Assembly (NCBI GenBank): GCA_020718085.1
Contig: DYDB01000005.1
Coordinates: 4,109 to 68,108, forward strand
Source of the DNA: Micavibrio sp.
Lineage (GTDB): Bacteria; Patescibacteriota; Minisyncoccia; Moranbacterales; GCA-2747515
Direction of reading: 5' to 3'
Length of the DNA: 64,000 bases
Part shown: piece after piece, positions 1-7,121 of the stretch
Numbering within the stretch: the stretch's first letter is position 1
How the letters are laid out: each line of letters starts with the position of its first letter
Notes under the pieces: model-generated
The model's database searches: none
What the model saw: only the letters and a program-made list of their open reading frames with translations
Told to the model about the DNA's origin: nothing
Position numbers and translations under genes: made by a program

Positions 1-1220
1 GGCACCGAGCTATTATCTTTATGATGAAATTGATCATAGTCATATCTGGCAAGACTGTGATCAGCTGTAAGAAAAATATACTCCGATTTTTCAATAAAAT
101 GTCTTAATTTTTTCCCTCTCAATTTTCTTATTGCATAAATTGCGGCAATATCATGTCGCAACGAGGCTTGCGTCTTGTCTTTTTTGCCGTAGGTCATCAG
201 ACGACTTTCTTCATCAATTCCTATCAAAACATCATTCTCACTGAAAGCATAGTCAATATCAATACCCAGCGCATTTAACTTCTCATCTATTTTTTCAATC
301 TCCAAAAAGATACTTGACTTTGTATATCCTTTTCTACACAAAACCGAATACATGGAATTAACTTTAGTCTGAGAATTATAAATACCGTAGTCGCTTAAAA
401 AGCCTTTTAGTTTTCTAATAATCTCATCCTCTGTGAAAGAAAAAATTCTTAGGTCGCAGCCAAAATCTTTAAGTATCGCAAAAATCTCTTGTGCTGGTTT
501 GTTATAGAAATCTTCATGAAAGCCCAATACGCTAAAAACCATGTTTGTATCAAGATACACGACAAGTTTATTGAATTTTGCCTTTGATTCATACCCTCTA
601 ATTAGAAGGGATCTTGAAAGAATACTTCCGTATAAAATAGACTTTAATCTTTTGAAATTAACAGGATCTGATTTCTCAGCATGCATGAAGTACTTTGCAA
701 CTTCAACCTGTAATTCATCGTTTATGTCATTTTTTGATGCATTGTCGTCACCTTCCAGATACAAAATGGCATTATGAGAATTTTTTTCAATAAAAAAACT
801 TATAGCTTTTTCAATTTGATGAATATCGTGTTCCATCTCAAATTCATCATCAAATTGTTTTTTTATATTCATAATGAGAGCCTCTTTTTCTCTTTCGGCA
901 TCTCTAAACTTTTCACATATGGCAACCTTTTCTTTTCTGCCATCATCAAGTAATTTGATTGATTTTATTGAGCTATTACGAATGTCATCAAGATAGACAA
1001 GATGCCTCTTGTGAAGTCGTTTTATTATTGTTCTAACAATATCTTCAGGCACATCAAAGCCTATTTCATCATGAATGATTTTTTGCACATCACAAATAGA
1101 TACCGCAGTATTATCAGATAAATGCTTTAATACTAGACTAGAAAAGACACTGATGACATCATTGCCATTATCATAAAATGATCTTATGGCGGCTAGTGTT
1201 GTGATTTTATTATTAGACAT
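1..1220 (-). CDS. Hypothetical protein, partial. The ATG is at 1218-1220 and the ORF runs open to the window edge (more than 406 aa). The N-terminal region shows no recognisable family. An internal 'KLVVYLDTNMVFSVLGF' segment resembles the first strand and Asp motif of PIN-like nucleases.
   Basis: Manual reverse-complement translation gave MSNNKITTLAAIRSF...LVVYLDTNMVF...LTADHSLARYD with no stop before position 1. The frame is consistent between 1220 and 540. The gene is absent from the ORF track only because its stop lies outside the window. Confidence 0.5.
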   Translation of the reverse strand, partial: MSNNKITTLAAIRSFYDNGNDVISVFSSLVLKHLSDNTAVSICDVQKIIHDEIGFDVPEDIVRTIIKRLHKRHLVYLDDIRNSSIKSIKLLDDGRKEKVAICEKFRDAEREKEALIMNIKKQFDDEFEMEHDIHQIEKAISFFIEKNSHNAILYLEGDDNASKNDINDELQVEVAKYFMHAEKSDPVNFKRLKSILYGSILSRSLLIRGYESKAKFNKLVVYLDTNMVFSVLGFHEDFYNKPAQEIFAILKDFGCDLRIFSFTEDEIIRKLKGFLSDYGIYNSQTKVNSMYSVLCRKGYTKSSIFLEIEKIDEKLNALGIDIDYAFSENDVLIGIDEESRLMTYGKKDKTQASLRHDIAAIYAIRKLRGKKLRHFIEKSEYIFLTADHSLARYDYDQFHHKDNSSV

Positions 1221-1668
1221 AAAAACTTACCAACAAATTAAAACCTCAATATCCAATGATATGAACTAATCGTATACCTACACAATTAAGTTCTTTAGTA
1301 TATAATATCAAATATACACAAATATACTAATGCAATGAAAAAAACGTCACAGAAGCGCAAAATAAGCGTTTCAGGAGTCAATGAGAGGATGATTGGCAAA
1401 ATTAGAAATGTTTCTGAGCAATACGGGATCAGTAAGCCAGAATTCACCATACATACTCCGAGTCCGGATGGCAAAATTCACTATAACTTCTTTTACTCAG
1501 CCAAAATGCCACCAATAGACTTCGGACCAAACAAACAGTCACTTGAAGTTGAAGTCTCTTCTGCTGAACAAGATAACGATAATTTATTGCATTTGTTATT
1601 ATCCTAAAAAACTCTTTCGATATGCAACAAAAAGAGGCTCGTTTAAAGCCTCTTTTTTCAAGCATTTC

Positions 1669-2862
1669 TTATAGTTTACGTTCTAGCACATCAATTCTGA
1701 CGATATTACTACACAGTTTCCACGCAGACTGATCTTTTCCTAGCTTTGTGGGATTATGTATCTCCTTTGCCCGCTCACCAATGGTTGCAGCCAGATCAGC
1801 AGATAGTGAACGAAATGTTTTAATTGGATCAGCTTTCCAAACTACCAAATTGCCTTCGACTTTAACCAAGTTACGAAATGCGGCTAAGACTGGATAAATG
1901 AACGCACTTGGAATCCTGTAATTTGCCTTGTCGGAAATAAAAATCATTTCCTCTCTATGCATTTTTGGTCGATTATTGATTTGAACAACTCCCGTTATGC
2001 CACCAAACTTACCATTCGTAGCTTTGTTATATGCATCAGGTAATTCCTTGTATATTACATCTCGCAATTCAAGTATTTTTGGGATTAGAGGAATAAATTT
2101 CTTCAACTCGGCGCGACGGTTCTTGAAGTGTTCTACGACACCTGATTTCTGGTTATATGCCATCACAGGATGTTTTTCATGATCAAAGTGATCAACATCA
2201 AAACATATCAAGTAAGACAAAATATCCTTAATGTCAACATCCTTCACCTCGCCTTTATCATCTAGCTCATATTCTTTGTATGCAATTCTGTTGGCATATG
2301 GCTTATCCTTAAGAACTTGTTTAATCTCTTCAAAGTGCTGCTTCAACTCTTCGAGACCAATAGCTTGAACTTGTGCGGATGTATTTCGTGCCAATACAAT
2401 CTCAACAGCAGTATCCAAGTCATCAATGCCCTCAATAATCTCCAAGCGAATACAAGCGTTTATATCATTCAACTCATCGGGATCTACGCTTCGAATGTAG
2501 TTTTGAATTACACGATATGTATGACCTCCATCAAGTAAGCCATGCCGTGTTTGGTCAGAAAAATATATGTCCAGCGTGTTAGTTTTGTTGTCGAACAATG
2601 CCTTTTCCACCAATAATGTTATACCTCGATTTCGGAAGAAAAATTGTTCTGGGTTATCCTCTAAAGATTTTTCAATCTTTTTGCTTACACCAGAAGTAAC
2701 CTTTGGATCTCTAGGATTTATTTTCCTCCACTCCTCAATTTCGATTGGCAAACTTTTTACCTCAGCAACTGCAATGTACGATCGAGCCACTGATTCATCG
2801 AAAGGACTTTCAATGCGTCGAAATGATTCAACTGGAATTTTAATTACCGTGCTTTTTTGCAT
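1669..2862 (-). CDS. AIPR-like (abortive infection phage resistance) family protein, tentative
   Basis: The 397-aa ORF contains the motifs 'FFFRNRGITLLV' and 'GLLDGGHTYRVIQ'. These resemble the N-terminal NxGITI and NGxQT signatures I associate with Pfam AIPR. The gene sits on a tRNA-flanked island next to a serine recombinase. Confidence 0.5.
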   Translation of the reverse strand: MQKSTVIKIPVESFRRIESPFDESVARSYIAVAEVKSLPIEIEEWRKINPRDPKVTSGVSKKIEKSLEDNPEQFFFRNRGITLLVEKALFDNKTNTLDIYFSDQTRHGLLDGGHTYRVIQNYIRSVDPDELNDINACIRLEIIEGIDDLDTAVEIVLARNTSAQVQAIGLEELKQHFEEIKQVLKDKPYANRIAYKEYELDDKGEVKDVDIKDILSYLICFDVDHFDHEKHPVMAYNQKSGVVEHFKNRRAELKKFIPLIPKILELRDVIYKELPDAYNKATNGKFGGITGVVQINNRPKMHREEMIFISDKANYRIPSAFIYPVLAAFRNLVKVEGNLVVWKADPIKTFRSLSADLAATIGERAKEIHNPTKLGKDQSAWKLCSNIVRIDVLERKL

Positions 2863-3049
2863 ATATTTATGCTTAATTTAATTAACGGGGCACAAAAAAA
2901 ACGTGCCCAATCCGCACGTTTAGTAATAAATCTATGAATATATATCATTAGGTCATTGACTAAATGTTTGCTGAGATCACTCTACAGCCTCTGCAGTTTT
3001 CACTACCAGAGTCAGTGTGCGGAGCACCACTGATTGACATAATCTTATC

Positions 3050-3540
3050 ACGAGTTTTTCACTTTGTCAAATTTGTTATCTTTACAAACTTTTCTAATTA
3101 TAGAAATATCAACCATTAGCAACCCTTTCATTTCAATATATCGAACTAAAAATGACACTTTTTTGCCATACTATACTGCAACCATTTGCAACCATGTCAA
3201 AAATGATCACAATACTCGAATCACCCTTTATTTTTCAGCAAAACTCAATTTCTGACACTCACCATTACTCACCATCTGATTGCATATTTTTTCAAAGAAA
3301 AAACCATGCTTTTTTCTTATTTTTATATATTCTACATTCCCACCATTATCCACCATTTGTTGTTGATTTAGTGGGATTGAAAATACTCTTTTTTTCTTTT
3401 ATTTTCAAGCAAAAAAGTTGTTTTTTGACTGTTCTCTATATCCACCATTTTCCACCATTATATTTTCACCATTTAGGATCAAAAATGATCCGCAAAACTA
3501 ACAAAAGATGCGTCTTATCAGGGTGGTTTTTGCACACGCT
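3050..3540. repeat. Array of about 10 degenerate direct repeats with core (C/T)CACCATT, e.g. 'tcccaccattatccaccattt' and 'tccaccattttccaccattatattttcaccattt'. It occupies a roughly 500 bp non-coding gap upstream of the AIPR-like gene.
   Basis: Read directly in the sequence at 3107, 3181, 3252, 3336 and 3440-3475. The overlapping + ORF 3152..3670 is His/Pro-rich low complexity generated by the repeat. Confidence 0.6.
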
Positions 3541-3542
3541 AA

Positions 3543-4034
3543 TCAACTCCCGCATTTTTGCAAATATGCCTTATATTCAGTCGCATAAGAATCAGCGTAA
3601 TCTTTTTCTTCTTCGTATGTGTCATCACAATCAGCCCCGCTTACATTCATTTTTTTTAGCTTCTTCTTAGCTTCTTCACACTTTTCTTTAGCCTCATCTG
3701 GACGCTTCATAATATCGTCATATTTTTCCTTGGTATATTTAGCTTTGTTTGTTTCACAGTATGCAATATCAGCAACCTGTTCCTCACTGAGTGAGTTACT
3801 AGCATTCTCTGAAGTATTTTTTATATCTTCAATTTCACCACTTTGAGTGCTCACAATTTCTTCTTGCTTACTAATTTTTTCTTGCTGTTCTCTTACTTGG
3901 TTGTTTAATCTTTCAACCTCCTGAGACAATTCTTCATTCTTTGTAGCAACAGCTTGATTTGATCTGTAGGAATAAAATCCCATAGAAGAGAGCAGGCTAA
4001 TAAAAATGACTGTGAGTATTGCAATGGCTTTCAT
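3543..4034 (-). CDS. Hypothetical secreted or membrane-anchored coiled-coil protein
   Basis: 163-aa ORF with an N-terminal hydrophobic segment (MKAIAILTVIFISLLSS), a Glu/Lys-rich coiled-coil body and paired Cys residues at the C-terminus. Confidence 0.45.
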   Translation of the reverse strand: MKAIAILTVIFISLLSSMGFYSYRSNQAVATKNEELSQEVERLNNQVREQQEKISKQEEIVSTQSGEIEDIKNTSENASNSLSEEQVADIAYCETNKAKYTKEKYDDIMKRPDEAKEKCEEAKKKLKKMNVSGADCDDTYEEEKDYADSYATEYKAYLQKCGS

Positions 4035-4123
4035 AAAATCTAAACTAATGATTATGCTATAAGTATTATTCGATGTGTAATAACGTTTAATTTTTGCATC
4101 ATAGCTTCAAACTGTTTAGTATA

Positions 4124-4690
4124 TTAGCTTTTATTAAAAATTGGATCTGACATAAATGGTCTTGCGCTAGTAAAAAATGCAACGCCATCTGGTAGATAAT
4201 AATCATACACTTGAGGTTTTGCCGTTCGATAATCAGACGAATTTTCCATGTTTTCACGATATATCATCTCGATCAACTTTCCCTCTGTTTTAGAGAAAAT
4301 AACAACTTCTCCTCTATTCAATAAGTTGGCGAAGTGATCCTGATATACCCCCATAAAAAAGCATTCACCATCTTCAAAATCTGCCATTATTTCATTCTTC
4401 GTAGTAATTGAAAGATGCGGATCATCTACATGCTTAAAATAAAAAGCAGCAAAGACATTTTCATCATTAAAGTAAGCGTTACATGTCCCAAGATCGTTTT
4501 TTAGTTTTATTTGCGTCGCTGTTTTTGAATTTCTCCCCATAGAAGAATTACGACGACTCTGAACGCTCATCGAAAAATCATCTGTTTTTTCATCGTGAGA
4601 GTTTTCATCTTTTTCTTTTTGTCGAGCAATTATATATCCAGTCACAAATGAAAGTATTAAGCTTCCCATAATCGCCAATATCTTCAACAT
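4124..4690 (-). CDS. Hypothetical membrane-anchored protein
   Basis: 188-aa ORF with an N-terminal TM helix (ILAIMGSLILSFVTGYIIA). No recognisable family. Confidence 0.45.
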   Translation of the reverse strand: MLKILAIMGSLILSFVTGYIIARQKEKDENSHDEKTDDFSMSVQSRRNSSMGRNSKTATQIKLKNDLGTCNAYFNDENVFAAFYFKHVDDPHLSITTKNEIMADFEDGECFFMGVYQDHFANLLNRGEVVIFSKTEGKLIEMIYRENMENSSDYRTAKPQVYDYYLPDGVAFFTSARPFMSDPIFNKS

Positions 4691-4747
4691 ATATGCTTAT
4701 TTTAGCTTTTATTACATTGGTTTATTGTCATACACGTATGTTGCGTA

Positions 4748-4948
4748 TCAGATATTTTTAACTTTATTTTTTAAATTTTCAAAATCGTTTCTCAGTTTCC
4801 GGTTTTTTTCTTTTAATCGTTCAATATCTTCAAAAGCACGTCGTATTTTGATCCTTACACCTCCAAGCCACATCAATCCTCCTAACAGAGCAAGAGCTAA
4901 TATCGCCCACAATACATTACCTAAAATGAACTTTATGACCATTTCCAT
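4748..4948 (-). CDS. Small membrane protein (66 aa), hypothetical
   Basis: One TM helix (LWAILALALLGGLMWLGG) followed by a charged coiled-coil tail. Confidence 0.35.
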   Translation of the reverse strand: MEMVIKFILGNVLWAILALALLGGLMWLGGVRIKIRRAFEDIERLKEKNRKLRNDFENLKNKVKNI

Positions 4949-4962
4949 ACAAAAAACGACTT

Positions 4963-4990
4963 AATAAATTAAGTCGTCGGGAAGATTTCG
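4963..4990 (-). terminator. Intrinsic terminator reading on the minus strand. A perfect 9-bp stem (cgacttaat / attaagtcg) is followed on the minus strand by a T-run.
   Basis: Plus-strand sequence is 'aaaaaacgacttaataaattaagtcgtcggg'. An A-run precedes it on plus, which is a T-run after it on minus. This implies a minus-strand transcript originating in 5000-5200. Confidence 0.45.
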
Positions 4991-5287
4991 CTTGAGTGGA
5001 CGACCCGACGGGACTCACACTCAAAAAGCATTAAATGCTCCATCATGTGCATCGAGCCGCCCGCTAAAGGGCGTGATGGAGCCTTAAAAATCCGGATTAA
5101 ATCCGGTGCCTATTGAGTATGAGTCCACATATAACGTAACATTTATTACATCAAAATACAACTTTTTGCGCCCGCCACATCCTTCTTATTTCTAAATAAT
5201 TAAAACATTGTTACAATGTACTCATGCAATCGCCAATCTTGCATATATATCTATATACTTATAGTTCGTACCCCTCTCCCTCTAATT

Positions 5288-7057
5288 ATGGATGATATAA
5301 AAAATCGCCAAAGGCCACTAAAAGTTGCCTTGTACATCCGCGTATCTACGGAAGAACAAGCTGAAAAATACGGACCAGAGCTTCAAAAAGATGCCCTGAA
5401 CGGCCTTATTAAGTCCAAAGGGCTTCTCCTGAACGGTAAACCATCGTACGTTTTAGCTGGTGAAAAATATATTTACTCTGATAGAGGCGTTAGTGGCACT
5501 ACGCTTCTTGATGAACGTCCGGAGTTTGCTCGTATGAAAGAGGACGTCTTATTGTCTTCTGAAGATAATAGGCCTTTTGATATTGTCGCCGTATATAAAA
5601 TTGATCGATTTGCTAGAAAACTTACTATACTTCTTGATATCATTGATTTTTTTGAAAGCTACAACATTGGATTTGTCTCTGCCACAGAGAGCATAGATAC
5701 ATCCACACCTTTCGGACGCGCGATATTGAATATCATTGGCGTTATTGCAGAATTGGAAAGAGAAACAATCAAACAACGCACCCAAGCCGGTCGCGAACAA
5801 GCTGCCAAAAGAGGTGTTCTTATGGGCTCATTTTCAGCATATGGTTATGTAAAAAACAATGAGAAGTTCCCTATAATCTTTGAAGAAGAAGCAAAAATCG
5901 TACGTGAAATTTTTGATCTTTTTGTGAATCAAAAGAGATCCGCATATGAAATTGCACAACAGCTTACCTCTAACAAAATACTTTCCAAAGAAGCATCCGC
6001 CGTACAGCATGAAAAGAAAAAAGGTGATATAAAAAAGAAAACCAACATCTTCTTTTGGCGCGATGAAGCAGTGCGCAACATTCTTCGAGATGAAATATAT
6101 ATCGGAAAACTCTATTACAACAAAGGCACGAGAGGTAAAATTGCACCGAAAGAACAATGGAAACTTGCTGAATATGAAGTGCCCCCGATTATTGATGAGC
6201 TTACATTTGAAAAAGCTCAGAGCCTCTTGGAAACATCAAAACATGAGAAAAAACATACGAGAAGTAATCATACATACCTTCTCAGTGGCCTTTTGCGTTG
6301 TGATTCATGTTTTGATGAGTCACAGGATGTGCGAGGTCGCACTCATTGGAACGGTGATCGAAAGAAAGTCAAAAAATCTGGCAGATTTACTTATTCCTAC
6401 AAGTGTGGTCGCAAAAATCCTTCAAAACATGAAAAAAGATGTCACACAATCCCTCTTCCTGCCCATGAAATCGAAAAGTATATCATCGATTTTTGCAAAA
6501 AACTTATTAAAAATCCTGTTGCCGTCTACAATCACCAAATTAAATTACGCTCATCCAAAACGGCAATCAAACATCTTAAAAACAAGGAGGATGAGATCCG
6601 TAAGGCGCTTAGAGCTCTTCCAATCCAAAAAGAACGCCTTTTAGAACAACACCAACATGGCTATATGGATAGCAAAACGCTGGATAAGCGCATCAGGGAT
6701 ATACATACACGCGAATCTGAGTTGAAAAAAAGACAGAATGAGCTTAAAAAGGAGATCTCCCAAAATATACTATCCGAAGAATACAATAAAACTCTACAAT
6801 TATTCTCTGAAAAATATAAGAATGACATTGAAAAAATACTCGTTGATCGATCAAAAACCTATGAATTGGTCCACCTTCTCATTGAAGAAATTATTGTATA
6901 TTCACGCCCAGTGAAAGATACTGACAAAATCGCCGGAATACGAAAAAAGGATCAAAAGATCCCTTTCCGTATTCATATTAAGTTGAAGTTACCCCAAGAG
7001 ATTCTACAGGACCTTACGGACCAGTTCGGGGTAAAAAATACTCCTTTGAGCGGGTGA
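5288..7057 (+). CDS. Large serine recombinase (integrase)
   Basis: The N-terminus 'LKVALYIRVSTEEQ' is the catalytic-serine resolvase/invertase motif. A roughly 590-aa body with Cys pairs (CDSC...CGRK..C) matches the recombinase and zinc-ribbon domains of large serine recombinases. The ORF-track start at 5216 is probably an upstream extension; the likely start is MDDIKNRQ at 5288. The stop at 7055-7057 overlaps the 3' end of tRNA-Gly. Confidence 0.85.
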   Translation: MDDIKNRQRPLKVALYIRVSTEEQAEKYGPELQKDALNGLIKSKGLLLNGKPSYVLAGEKYIYSDRGVSGTTLLDERPEFARMKEDVLLSSEDNRPFDIVAVYKIDRFARKLTILLDIIDFFESYNIGFVSATESIDTSTPFGRAILNIIGVIAELERETIKQRTQAGREQAAKRGVLMGSFSAYGYVKNNEKFPIIFEEEAKIVREIFDLFVNQKRSAYEIAQQLTSNKILSKEASAVQHEKKKGDIKKKTNIFFWRDEAVRNILRDEIYIGKLYYNKGTRGKIAPKEQWKLAEYEVPPIIDELTFEKAQSLLETSKHEKKHTRSNHTYLLSGLLRCDSCFDESQDVRGRTHWNGDRKKVKKSGRFTYSYKCGRKNPSKHEKRCHTIPLPAHEIEKYIIDFCKKLIKNPVAVYNHQIKLRSSKTAIKHLKNKEDEIRKALRALPIQKERLLEQHQHGYMDSKTLDKRIRDIHTRESELKKRQNELKKEISQNILSEEYNKTLQLFSEKYKNDIEKILVDRSKTYELVHLLIEEIIVYSRPVKDTDKIAGIRKKDQKIPFRIHIKLKLPQEILQDLTDQFGVKNTPLSG

Positions 7058-7121
7058 AGGGAATCGAACCCTCGTCCTCAGCTTGGAAGGCTGATATAAT
7101 AAGCCACTATACGACACCCGC
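7049..7121 (-). tRNA. tRNA-Gly (anticodon TCC)
   Basis: Reverse complement is GCGGGTGTCGTATAGTGGCTTATTATATCAGCCTTCCAAGCTGAGGACGAGGGTTCGATTCCCTTCACCCGCT. The acceptor stem is GCGGGTG/CACCCGC. The anticodon stem is TCAGC/GCTGA with loop cTTCCaa. The T-loop is GGTTCGATTCC. CCA is not encoded. Confidence 0.85.

Follow-up and report, generated by a model that had tools for sequence, protein, structure and literature searches.

A conserved structured RNA upstream of a short AIPR-family gene and an unnamed family of PIN-like proteins on a Patescibacteria island

INTRODUCTION

The AIPR family (PF10592; COG1479), which ranks among the oldest of the "abortive infection" families, includes AbiU1 of Lactococcus. 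Canonical AIPR/AbiU1 proteins bear an N-terminal HEPN toxin domain (PMC3506569), and the core of the family is a ParB-superfamily domain that is common to DndB and linked with restriction-modification (R-M) (PMC3506569, PMC3632139, PMC2292703). Here we describe an AIPR-family gene and the gene adjoining it, ORF B, which lie at the edge of a 64,000-nucleotide stretch of Patescibacteria DNA (contig DYDB01000005.1, positions 4,109 to 68,108; referred to in its full length as the window). The initial annotation of this locus had proposed that the two genes form a defense module, composed of an AIPR-like protein and a protein with a PIN-like nuclease motif.

In type III toxin-antitoxin (TA) loci, a promoter is followed by an RNA, a terminator, and the toxin gene, with the terminator setting the ratio of RNA to protein. 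The AIPR gene of the window is preceded by a structured RNA of about 140 nucleotides (nt), which is conserved across many relatives. Taking the evidence presented below together, we consider it fairly probable that the AIPR gene and ORF B are two independent single-gene cassettes of a defense island at a tRNA-Gly gene, the first gated by its RNA leader and the second encoding a membrane-tethered PIN-like protein. The AIPR leader is previously undescribed, and the ORF B family is unnamed.

An exact look-up of the AIPR protein led to L001, a groundwater-metagenome contig that carries identical DNA and reaches past the window edge. ORF B, of which the window holds only the first 406 of 656 amino acids (aa), is complete on this contig (L001 11643–13613).

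RESULTS

A short AIPR protein whose relatives lie beside restriction-modification genes

The AIPR gene (1669–2862, minus strand) encodes a protein of 397 aa that matches Pfam PF10592 over residues 49–354, corresponding to profile positions 4–290 of 308 (E = 7.1e-29; 101.9 bits, cut-off 25). The match lies above the curated threshold and confirms the family assignment made in the initial annotation. Two N-terminal motifs that had been singled out as AIPR signatures, FFFRNRGITLLV at residues 74–85 and GLLDGGHTYRVIQ at residues 108–120, both fall on columns invariant among short AIPR proteins (F74, N78, R79, G80, and T82 in the first; G108, L110, D111, G112, G113, H114, and T115 in the second). 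Among 430 detected relatives, the best 120 are almost all 390–427 aa long, and the relatives include a tight subfamily of ~395–410 aa with many members from Patescibacteria. Across 35 sequences from many Patescibacteria lineages, this subfamily has a mean column identity of 66% and 75 invariant columns, a degree of conservation that, judged from the alignment, is unusually high for a gene of a defense island.

Canonical AbiU1 and Abi-alpha proteins measure ~550–590 aa, with an N-terminal HEPN or toxin region ahead of the AIPR domain, and the window protein does not have this form. The PADLOC AbiU profile aligns with it only over positions 250–371 of 537 (E 2e-4) and the Abi-alpha profile (PHROG 1841) only over positions 256–428 of 567. 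Because both profiles align only from position ~250 onward, and the HEPN domain is described in the literature as N-terminal, the window protein represents a minimal form of AIPR that lacks the toxin domain. Its AlphaFold2 (AF2) model has a predicted local distance difference test score (pLDDT) of 86. A Foldseek search of this model against the PDB yielded nothing significant, the top match being a ParB-N domain (E 0.14), and a search of PDB sequences with the AIPR sequence profile found no solved relative.

On all three long contigs available for relatives, the AIPR gene stands alone beside R-M genes: one contig carries Ymh, an MmeI-type methyltransferase, and an SNF2/PLD helicase; another carries a MutH-type endonuclease and an N6/N4 methyltransferase; and another carries a LexA-fused methyltransferase. 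The same tendency is seen among 114 neighboring proteins from ~50 loci, where DNA methyltransferases are the commonest family (N6_N4 12, D12 3) and DpnII, AlwI, MutH, and RAMA occur twice each. A conserved protein partner of AIPR was considered and rejected, as the neighbors vary and are enriched only for R-M. The AIPR protein most likely acts on nucleic acid alongside neighboring R-M systems.

A structured RNA leader accompanies the AIPR gene

The 335–497 nt upstream of the AIPR start are free of genes on all three long contigs. When these three regions are aligned with the window, conserved blocks stand out, namely a TTGACA/–10 promoter, a terminator, and several hairpins in which changes compensate one another. 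A sigma-70-like promoter of the window found by promoter scan (3042–3070, minus strand; L001 9793–9821) comprises TTGACA, a 17-nt spacer, and TAAGAT with a TG extension; it agrees with the consensus at 10 of 12 positions, which is a consensus match only, and the TTGACA/–10 pair is aligned likewise in other loci. Downstream of it lies the leader RNA as delimited by covariance model (2894–3034, minus strand; ~140 nt), consisting of P1/P1a, P2, P3, a switch region, and a terminator. The intrinsic terminator hairpin with its T run was also detected by terminator scan (2899–2921, minus strand; L001 9942–9964). The T run ends at 2894, 31 nt upstream of the AIPR start codon at 2862, and the hairpin coordinate 2899 lies 36 nt upstream.

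A first covariance model, built from four sequences, found the leader directly upstream of AIPR and on the same strand in 43 sources, and a second-round model (R2) added five more, giving 47 further loci besides the window, whose own leader scores 143.9 bits. Of the 46 loci with at least 46% AIPR identity and enough upstream DNA, 44 carry the leader, always on the same strand, and 16–74 nt separate its 3′ end from the point at which the AIPR protein match starts. No occurrence other than upstream of AIPR was found in the 1.1 Mb searched with the covariance models. The leader has no match in Rfam 15 and nothing corresponding to it was found in the literature searched; the exact leader pattern gave 0 matches in viral contigs. 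Two loci (L039 and L074) contain AIPR genes whose products are 55% identical to the window protein and have ample upstream DNA, with no match to either RNA model. The AIPR protein match at L074 does not begin until residue 32, and the leader there may have undergone loss or rearrangement.

The structure itself was already apparent before any model was made: with the four sequences simply aligned by MAFFT, RNAalifold returned five helices and the terminator, and 13 of 34 pairs were compensatory even then. In the 43-sequence alignment (A7), which is fitted to the model and thereby inflates pair counts in favor of the modeled structure, standard pairs are formed in 97% of cells, both sides have changed in 30 of 34 pairs, and compensatory cells number 275 compared with 85.8 ± 9.5 in shuffles. 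Sliding the pair partners by 1–3 columns cuts pairing to 25–43%. All six modeled stem pairs of the terminator covary, and 99% of their cells are paired. Because of the slid controls and the prediction that preceded the model, we argue that the leader structure is real. The minimum free energy (MFE) of the window leader as a single sequence is −42.5 kcal/mol (z = −3.66).

A related leader is present in a more distant AIPR clade (39–42% identity, higher G+C) that gives no match to the leader model. It retains the GUAGGG...CCCUC and GUUAAAGG...CCUUUAC hairpins, and 22 of 23 pairs are compensatory; a terminator is lacking, and the RNA stops at the ribosome-binding site. A cis-regulatory leader would be expected to behave in this way, with one core joined to different expression platforms in the two lineages. 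The leader also shows the covarying structure, always upstream of the same gene family and on the same strand, by which a cis-regulatory attenuator or riboswitch is recognized. The conserved partner of the AIPR gene is this structured RNA just beyond the stretch originally considered, and not ORF B.

A plausible switch between the terminator and an alternative helix

Within the switch region, the 5′ strand of P4 (GUUUAG) can pair either with a nearby CUAA or with a conserved CUAAAC at the foot of the terminator. The second pairing, which we refer to as the alternative helix, is 85.5% paired, compared with 24–52% in slid controls, and contains 25 double-change cells compared with 13.7 ± 3.3 in shuffles. 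When RNAalifold is applied to the large alignment, it leaves exactly the P4/alternative-helix region unpaired, and only that region. Mutual exclusion of the alternative helix and the terminator is plausible from these models, and the switch region looks like a terminator/antiterminator platform.

From this arrangement we infer that the leader is a transcription-attenuating element that gates AIPR expression. Transcription would start at the gene's own promoter, cross the ~140-nt structured leader, and meet the intrinsic terminator, where an effector would decide between termination and read-through, such that AIPR protein would be made only under certain conditions. The effector could be a small molecule, a factor linked with infection, or AIPR itself. 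Conserved leader bases sit mostly inside stems, with a UAG/CUR core recurring within the P2, P3, and P4 stems, and because of this placement an RNA that binds a protein, possibly AIPR, fits better than a small-molecule pocket.

The same RNA could alternatively be a separate small RNA that neutralizes the AIPR protein, as in the type III TA systems ToxIN and AbiQ. The layout of promoter, RNA, terminator, and open reading frame (ORF) is identical to that of type III TA loci, the UAG/CUR core in P2, P3, and P4 looks like a set of repeated protein-binding sites and not like a ligand pocket, and AIPR is classed as an abortive-infection family (PMC3506569). Against an antitoxin of this kind stand the covariation of the alternative helix and the RNA of the distant clade, which lacks a terminator and continues straight to the ribosome-binding site, as is typical of a 5′ untranslated region. 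Moreover, 2894–3034 contains no tandem repeats, and AIPR is unrelated to the ToxN/AbiQ endoribonucleases. On balance, we regard an RNA antitoxin as unlikely and prefer to view the leader as an attenuator of its own gene.

ORF B belongs to a large family with a predicted PIN-like core

ORF B begins at 1220 on the minus strand and runs off the window at base 3. The protein has no match in Pfam (E ≤ 1), NCBIfam, PHROGs, or PADLOC (PADLOC-DB v2.0.0), and a word-indexed search returned only nine relatives. An exhaustive profile search, by comparison, retrieved 4,598 cluster representatives (50% identity) at E ≤ 1e-3, 1,900 of them at E ≤ 1e-30; the best 150 of these relatives are nearly all 620–680 aa long and matched over their full length.

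The AF2 model of the complete protein (mean pLDDT 77.7, rising to ~90 for residues 220–420) begins with a small helical or winged domain, from which a helical linker leads to an alpha/beta core; after the core come additional helices, then a single helix of ~90 residues, and lastly two C-terminal helices. The core (residues ~215–425, of which ~215–406 are encoded in the window at 3–578, minus strand) has its best Foldseek match in the PDB with the PIN protein PAE0151 (2fe1; probability 1.0, TMt 0.67, E 0.04); PAE2754 (1v8o) and a yeast RNA-decay protein (7qhy) match as well. Residues ~1–95 (936–1220, minus strand) match dozens of PadR/MarR winged-helix regulators (probability 1.0, TMt up to 0.76). 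The N-terminal 200 aa, initially deemed unclassifiable, can now be described as a PadR/MarR-like winged helix followed by a helical linker, on the combined basis of Foldseek, profile search, and Pfam scan. The family profile searched against PDB sequences gave nothing significant, returning weak PadR matches (E 0.03–0.07) and coiled-coil or transmembrane (TM) noise.

Because no Foldseek E-value falls below 0.001, the fold evidence for the core is on its own only suggestive, and the conservation pattern adds to it. The motif VYLDTN (residues 221–226, within KLVVYLDTNMVFSVLGF at 218–234) had been read as strand 1 of a PIN-like nuclease with the catalytic Asp. Among 144 family members, D224 is conserved in 100%, E245 in 93% (D in 6%), D357 in 100%, T/S385 in 100%, and D387 in 88% (N in 12%); N226 is conserved in 92%, T263 in 97%, E266 in 95%, and R368 and W420 in 100%. 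The modeled fold, in which strand-helix units alternate to build a parallel sheet, and the acidic pattern D...E...D...T/S-x-D are those by which the PIN superfamily is recognized, and the putative catalytic residues are D224, E245, (T263/E266), D357, and T385-x-D387. The invariance of D224 across the aligned members means that the YLDT motif is not a chance match, and together with the structural matches and those of relatives it upholds the original reading. The relatives' matches are weak: a Pfam scan of 73 of them returned 16 sub-threshold PIN-family matches (PIN_3 8, best 5e-4; PIN 6, best 4e-4; PIN_12 2). The same scan detected winged-helix models (HTH_45 8, wHTH-PRTase_assc 6, HVO_A0261_N 4) and, in 19 of the 73, the membrane-helix domain DUF2207_C (best 3.6e-6). 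PADLOC models gave only weak, scattered matches among these relatives (WH_III-A 7, LeoBC 5).

A hydropathy scan places two membrane segments near the C terminus of ORF B, at residues 572–590 and 600–618. Of 144 relatives, 140 have at least one predicted TM segment, and for 126 of these no segment falls outside the last 20% of the protein. According to these models, the architecture is that of a winged helix, a PIN-like nuclease domain with a ~75-aa insertion, a coiled-coil stalk, and a two-helix membrane anchor. Nuclease activity and membrane location are inferred from this prediction.

ORF B occupies positions typical of defense and exclusion genes

Genomic contexts of ORF B were collected from exact look-ups, from annotated records, and from a genome scan with a 9-sequence alignment that yielded 13 genome loci. 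No constant neighboring protein family was found across the loci. In two Patescibacteria loci, the gene is placed between hsdM and hsdS inside a type I R-M operon, with gaps of 0/−4 and 5/−29 nt, and at another locus it is directly preceded by HsdS, HsdR, and a YgjP peptidase. Some relatives neighbor type II R-M genes with Vsr (R.HinP1I, Eco47II, C5 methyltransferases); others neighbor HEPN_AbiU2 and HNH genes, Shedu SduA_C, an OLD-family ATPase-TOPRIM protein, or a NERD protein.

Outside Patescibacteria, ORF B is found as a solitary "hypothetical protein" between insertion sequence (IS) elements on a Klebsiella plasmid and several Enterococcus faecium plasmids, and in P2-like prophages of two E. 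coli genomes. The homologs concerned are WP_204691543.1 (strain FDAARGOS_1337) and WP_096936374.1 (strain MEI7BO1-21). One of these prophages has the gene between ogr and D. The prophage of E. coli FDAARGOS_1337 has it on the opposite strand between the tail sheath and tail-fibre-assembly genes, a position that corresponds to the fun(Z) slot of phage P2; fun(Z) is annotated "blocks growth of T5". P2 Fun(Z) was ruled out as a homolog, as the two share no sequence similarity. The E. coli, Klebsiella, and Enterococcus homologs are full-length members of the family (E 1e-91 to 1e-101), and four RefSeq homologs are annotated "hypothetical protein". A tblastn search with the E. coli homolog against INPHARED phages gave no match, and the accessions of the E. 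coli and Klebsiella homologs were not found in the portion of the supplementary tables of Rousset et al. 2022 that was accessible.

In three closely related loci (L010, L013, and L018), a 221-aa Peptidase_S24 (LexA/CI-like) gene overlaps the start of ORF B by 14 nt, and the genes downstream differ between them (HEPN_AbiU2 and HNH versus Shedu SduA_C). The Peptidase_S24 protein may be a lineage-specific regulator of ORF B.

These contexts describe an autonomous, horizontally mobile gene that favors defense and exclusion positions. The placement between hsdM and hsdS suggests, by analogy, a PrrC-like latent nuclease that backs up R-M, and the genomic positions as a whole make it likely that the family is a single-gene defense or exclusion factor. 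ORF B could instead regulate transcription from the membrane, or act as an addiction factor that maintains plasmids or islands, with a PIN-like domain that binds nucleic acid and does not cut it. In favor of such a role are the PadR/MarR-like winged helix, the location on plasmids between IS elements, and the Peptidase_S24 gene directly upstream in three loci, and no PADLOC model matches ORF B. Against it, all canonical PIN acidic positions are kept across 144 diverse members, and the hsdM–hsdS and P2 fun(Z)-slot positions are typical of exclusion genes, with neighbors that are overwhelmingly defense genes. We judge a role outside defense to be improbable, slightly more so than an RNA antitoxin at the AIPR gene, and retain a defense or exclusion function for ORF B.

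The two gene families do not co-occur in the other loci surveyed

If the two genes formed a module as first proposed, co-transcribed and working together in abortive infection, for example as sensor plus effector, the families would be expected together in other genomes. No AIPR gene was found within up to 10 kb of ORF B in 16 other independent loci, and no ORF B gene was found in 83 AIPR loci (521 kb). In favor of a module, the genes are adjacent and co-oriented in the window, and the 448-nt gap that separates them has no predicted terminator. An association with R-M systems is seen for both families, and one ORF B relative adjoins a gene for HEPN_AbiU2, which is the other component of lactococcal AbiU. 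Against this stand the lack of co-occurrence in all of these loci, the solitary state of ORF B on plasmids and in prophages, and the conserved promoter-leader-terminator unit that the AIPR gene has to itself. Because the families never co-occur elsewhere, the pairing seen here appears to be an accident of island assembly, and we consider a functional module very unlikely. The initial claim of a two-gene module is therefore not sustained. An anti-phage or abortive role remains plausible for each gene separately, as suggested by the neighbors of each in other genomes, but does not extend to the two as a pair.

Beyond the window edge on L001, ORF B is followed by an SF2 helicase gene and then by a truncated Fib_succ_major protein. 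The helicase (L001 13932–15902, 656 aa) contains ResIII, Helicase_C, and SWI2_SNF2 domains, with two INT_rpt repeats and two DUF4379 zinc ribbons at its C terminus; a nuclease domain was looked for in the domain scan and none was detected. It is best matched in PADLOC by type IV methyl-directed restriction enzymes, through their helicase core (E = 1.5e-46), and by PbeA, and a promoter-like site lies directly upstream of it (11/12 consensus matches). That ORF B and this helicase form a restriction-like pair of nuclease and motor is the least probable of the alternatives: the helicase is co-oriented, begins 318 nt downstream of the ORF B stop (L001 13613), and resembles restriction helicases while having no recognizable nuclease domain of its own, and SF2 helicases occur within four genes of ORF B in 3 of 17 loci, but those of the other loci are R-M subunits of different types with 30% identity to the island's helicase or an indirect relationship to it, a helicase is missing from most ORF B loci, ORF B also occurs as a solitary gene, and the helicase has its own strong promoter-like site.

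Island setting and neighboring features

On the far side of the AIPR leader, the window carries a large serine recombinase gene (5216–7057, plus strand; Pfam Resolvase and Recombinase), the last codons of which overlap a tRNA-Gly(tcc) gene (7048–7121, minus strand; ARAGORN). G+C content is 32–38% in bases 1–5000 and mostly 37–44% deeper in the window. The recombinase, its overlap with the tRNA gene, and the low G+C content of the first 5 kb support the integrase-bearing island described in the initial annotation. Integration probably took place at the tRNA-Gly(tcc) gene, which would then mark one edge of the island; the other edge is located beyond both the window and L001.

Three small unannotated ORFs lie on the recombinase side of the AIPR gene. 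At 3543–4690 (minus strand), between the recombinase and the leader, there are two small ORFs without a precomputed Pfam match, each with an N-terminal hydrophobic segment; one encodes 163 aa with a highly charged, Glu/Lys-rich, coiled-coil-like sequence, and the other 188 aa. The ORF-free stretch upstream of the leader promoter (3111–3459, minus strand) contains five AATGGTKnnnAATGGTK doublets spaced 69–102 nt apart, compared with 0.19 matches expected, and the doublet occurs nowhere else in the 64 kb. None of the other fetched loci contains the exact core, AATGGTnnnnAATGGT, so this iteron-like array is specific to the island, and it was rejected as a conserved AIPR feature. An ORF of 90 aa at 1335–1607 (plus strand), antisense within the 448-nt gap between the two genes, is called by public predictions and has a promoter-like site; with no homolog among 117 fetched loci, it is probably not a real gene.

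DISCUSSION

In the reading that we favor, the AIPR gene and ORF B would act separately. ORF B would be an autonomous protein of ~650 aa whose coiled-coil stalk continues into two C-terminal membrane helices, forming a nuclease that is tethered to the membrane, restrains itself, and becomes active when phage or other foreign DNA invades. It would then either cleave the invader close to the membrane or abort the infection by cleaving host RNA. The AIPR protein, in turn, would be produced under the control of its leader as described above.

Besides the fitting of the leader alignment to its own model, several observations weigh against this reading. The alternative helix overlaps the modeled terminator stem by just two pairs, or four when the A-U foot is counted, and the two structures coexist in the MFE fold of the window's own leader. 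Because of this coexistence and an overlap of only 2–4 nt, the terminator/antiterminator switch is our interpretation of the leader. For ORF B, every Foldseek E-value exceeds 0.001 (best 0.04) and the protein itself has no Pfam PIN match. The two genes are adjacent and co-oriented with no terminator detected between them by scan, such that they could be co-transcribed in this island, and no methyltransferase or restriction endonuclease was seen beside either gene in the window's island, where only a restriction-type helicase was seen.

A bolder version of the same reading can be formulated, in which the leader is a new class of sensor RNA that gates a defense gene by termination, either as a riboswitch for an infection-linked small molecule or as an RNA bound and controlled by AIPR, and in which the winged helix/PIN/coiled-coil/2TM family is a new, widespread single-gene anti-phage system. 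We put this forward as a doubtful possibility, better placed than any of the alternatives weighed in Results. If the roles proposed here hold, a conserved RNA that controls or partners a minimal, toxin-domain-free AIPR protein would offer an experimental handle on the mechanism of AIPR, and the leader would possibly constitute a new class of regulatory RNA absent from Rfam. The ORF B family is very large, extending from Patescibacteria to E. coli, Klebsiella, and Enterococcus, and has no Pfam, NCBIfam, or PADLOC model; on the same proviso, it would be a strong candidate for a new single-gene defense system with a membrane-tethered PIN nuclease. Because homologs exist in cultivable hosts, including in E. 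coli prophages, ORF B is directly amenable to testing. The adjacency of the two genes on a shared island would here not be evidence of a functional pair.

Comparison with known systems

Like AbiU1, the window protein contains a significant match to the AIPR domain. Its relatives are linked with R-M genes, as the literature describes for the family (PMC2292703, PMC3506569), and its weak top structural match, ParB-N, agrees with the ParB-superfamily core (PMC3632139). It differs in that its AIPR domain begins at residue 49, the ~250-residue N-terminal region of AbiU1-type proteins, described as a HEPN toxin (PMC3506569), being absent. It differs further in its structured RNA leader, a feature not reported for the family in the literature searched. 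The window protein also invites comparison with DndB, the regulator of dnd phosphorothioation. The GLLDGGHT of the AIPR protein appears to resemble the DGQHR-type motif. No NCBIfam DndB or DGQHR model matches the protein at E ≤ 1, and no dnd genes are nearby. DndB is similar in size and has an AIPR/ParB-like N-terminal region (PMC3506569, PMC3632139).

For ORF B, the closest structural counterparts are the VapC-type PIN nucleases PAE0151 and PAE2754, which are the best matches of the core and share its acidic pattern. Unlike in these proteins, the PIN core of ORF B contains a ~75-aa insertion and forms only one part of a 650-aa protein that also has a winged helix, a coiled coil, and two membrane helices, and no conserved small antitoxin gene is found directly upstream across loci, as would be expected of VapBC. 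The two relatives placed between hsdM and hsdS in abutting or overlapping frames recall PrrC and RloC. PrrC holds the equivalent place in the EcoprrI locus. ORF B has no ABC-ATPase head, however, and it is PIN-like without the PrrC nuclease domain, has membrane helices, and in the window has no type I R-M system beside it. With fun(Z) of P2, the E. coli relative shares the slot between FI (tail sheath) and G (tail-fibre assembly), as a single gene on the opposite strand, without sequence similarity between the two proteins. The one-protein PIN system DS-3 from DefensePredictor has a PIN domain split between the N and C termini (PMC13092281), unlike the central PIN core and C-terminal membrane helices of ORF B, a distinction drawn from the description alone.

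Finally, the leader can be compared both with attenuators and riboswitches and with the RNAs of type III TA systems (ToxI and antiQ). It differs from known riboswitches and type III TA RNAs in belonging to no Rfam 15 family, in having conserved bases that lie largely in stems, and in the absence of tandem repeats from 2894–3034; the protein encoded downstream is AIPR and not ToxN or AbiQ. The order of promoter, structured RNA, intrinsic terminator, and ORF is common to all of them. With attenuators and riboswitches in particular, the leader shares a covarying alternative helix that touches the terminator and, in a second lineage, the same core joined to a platform close to the ribosome-binding site.

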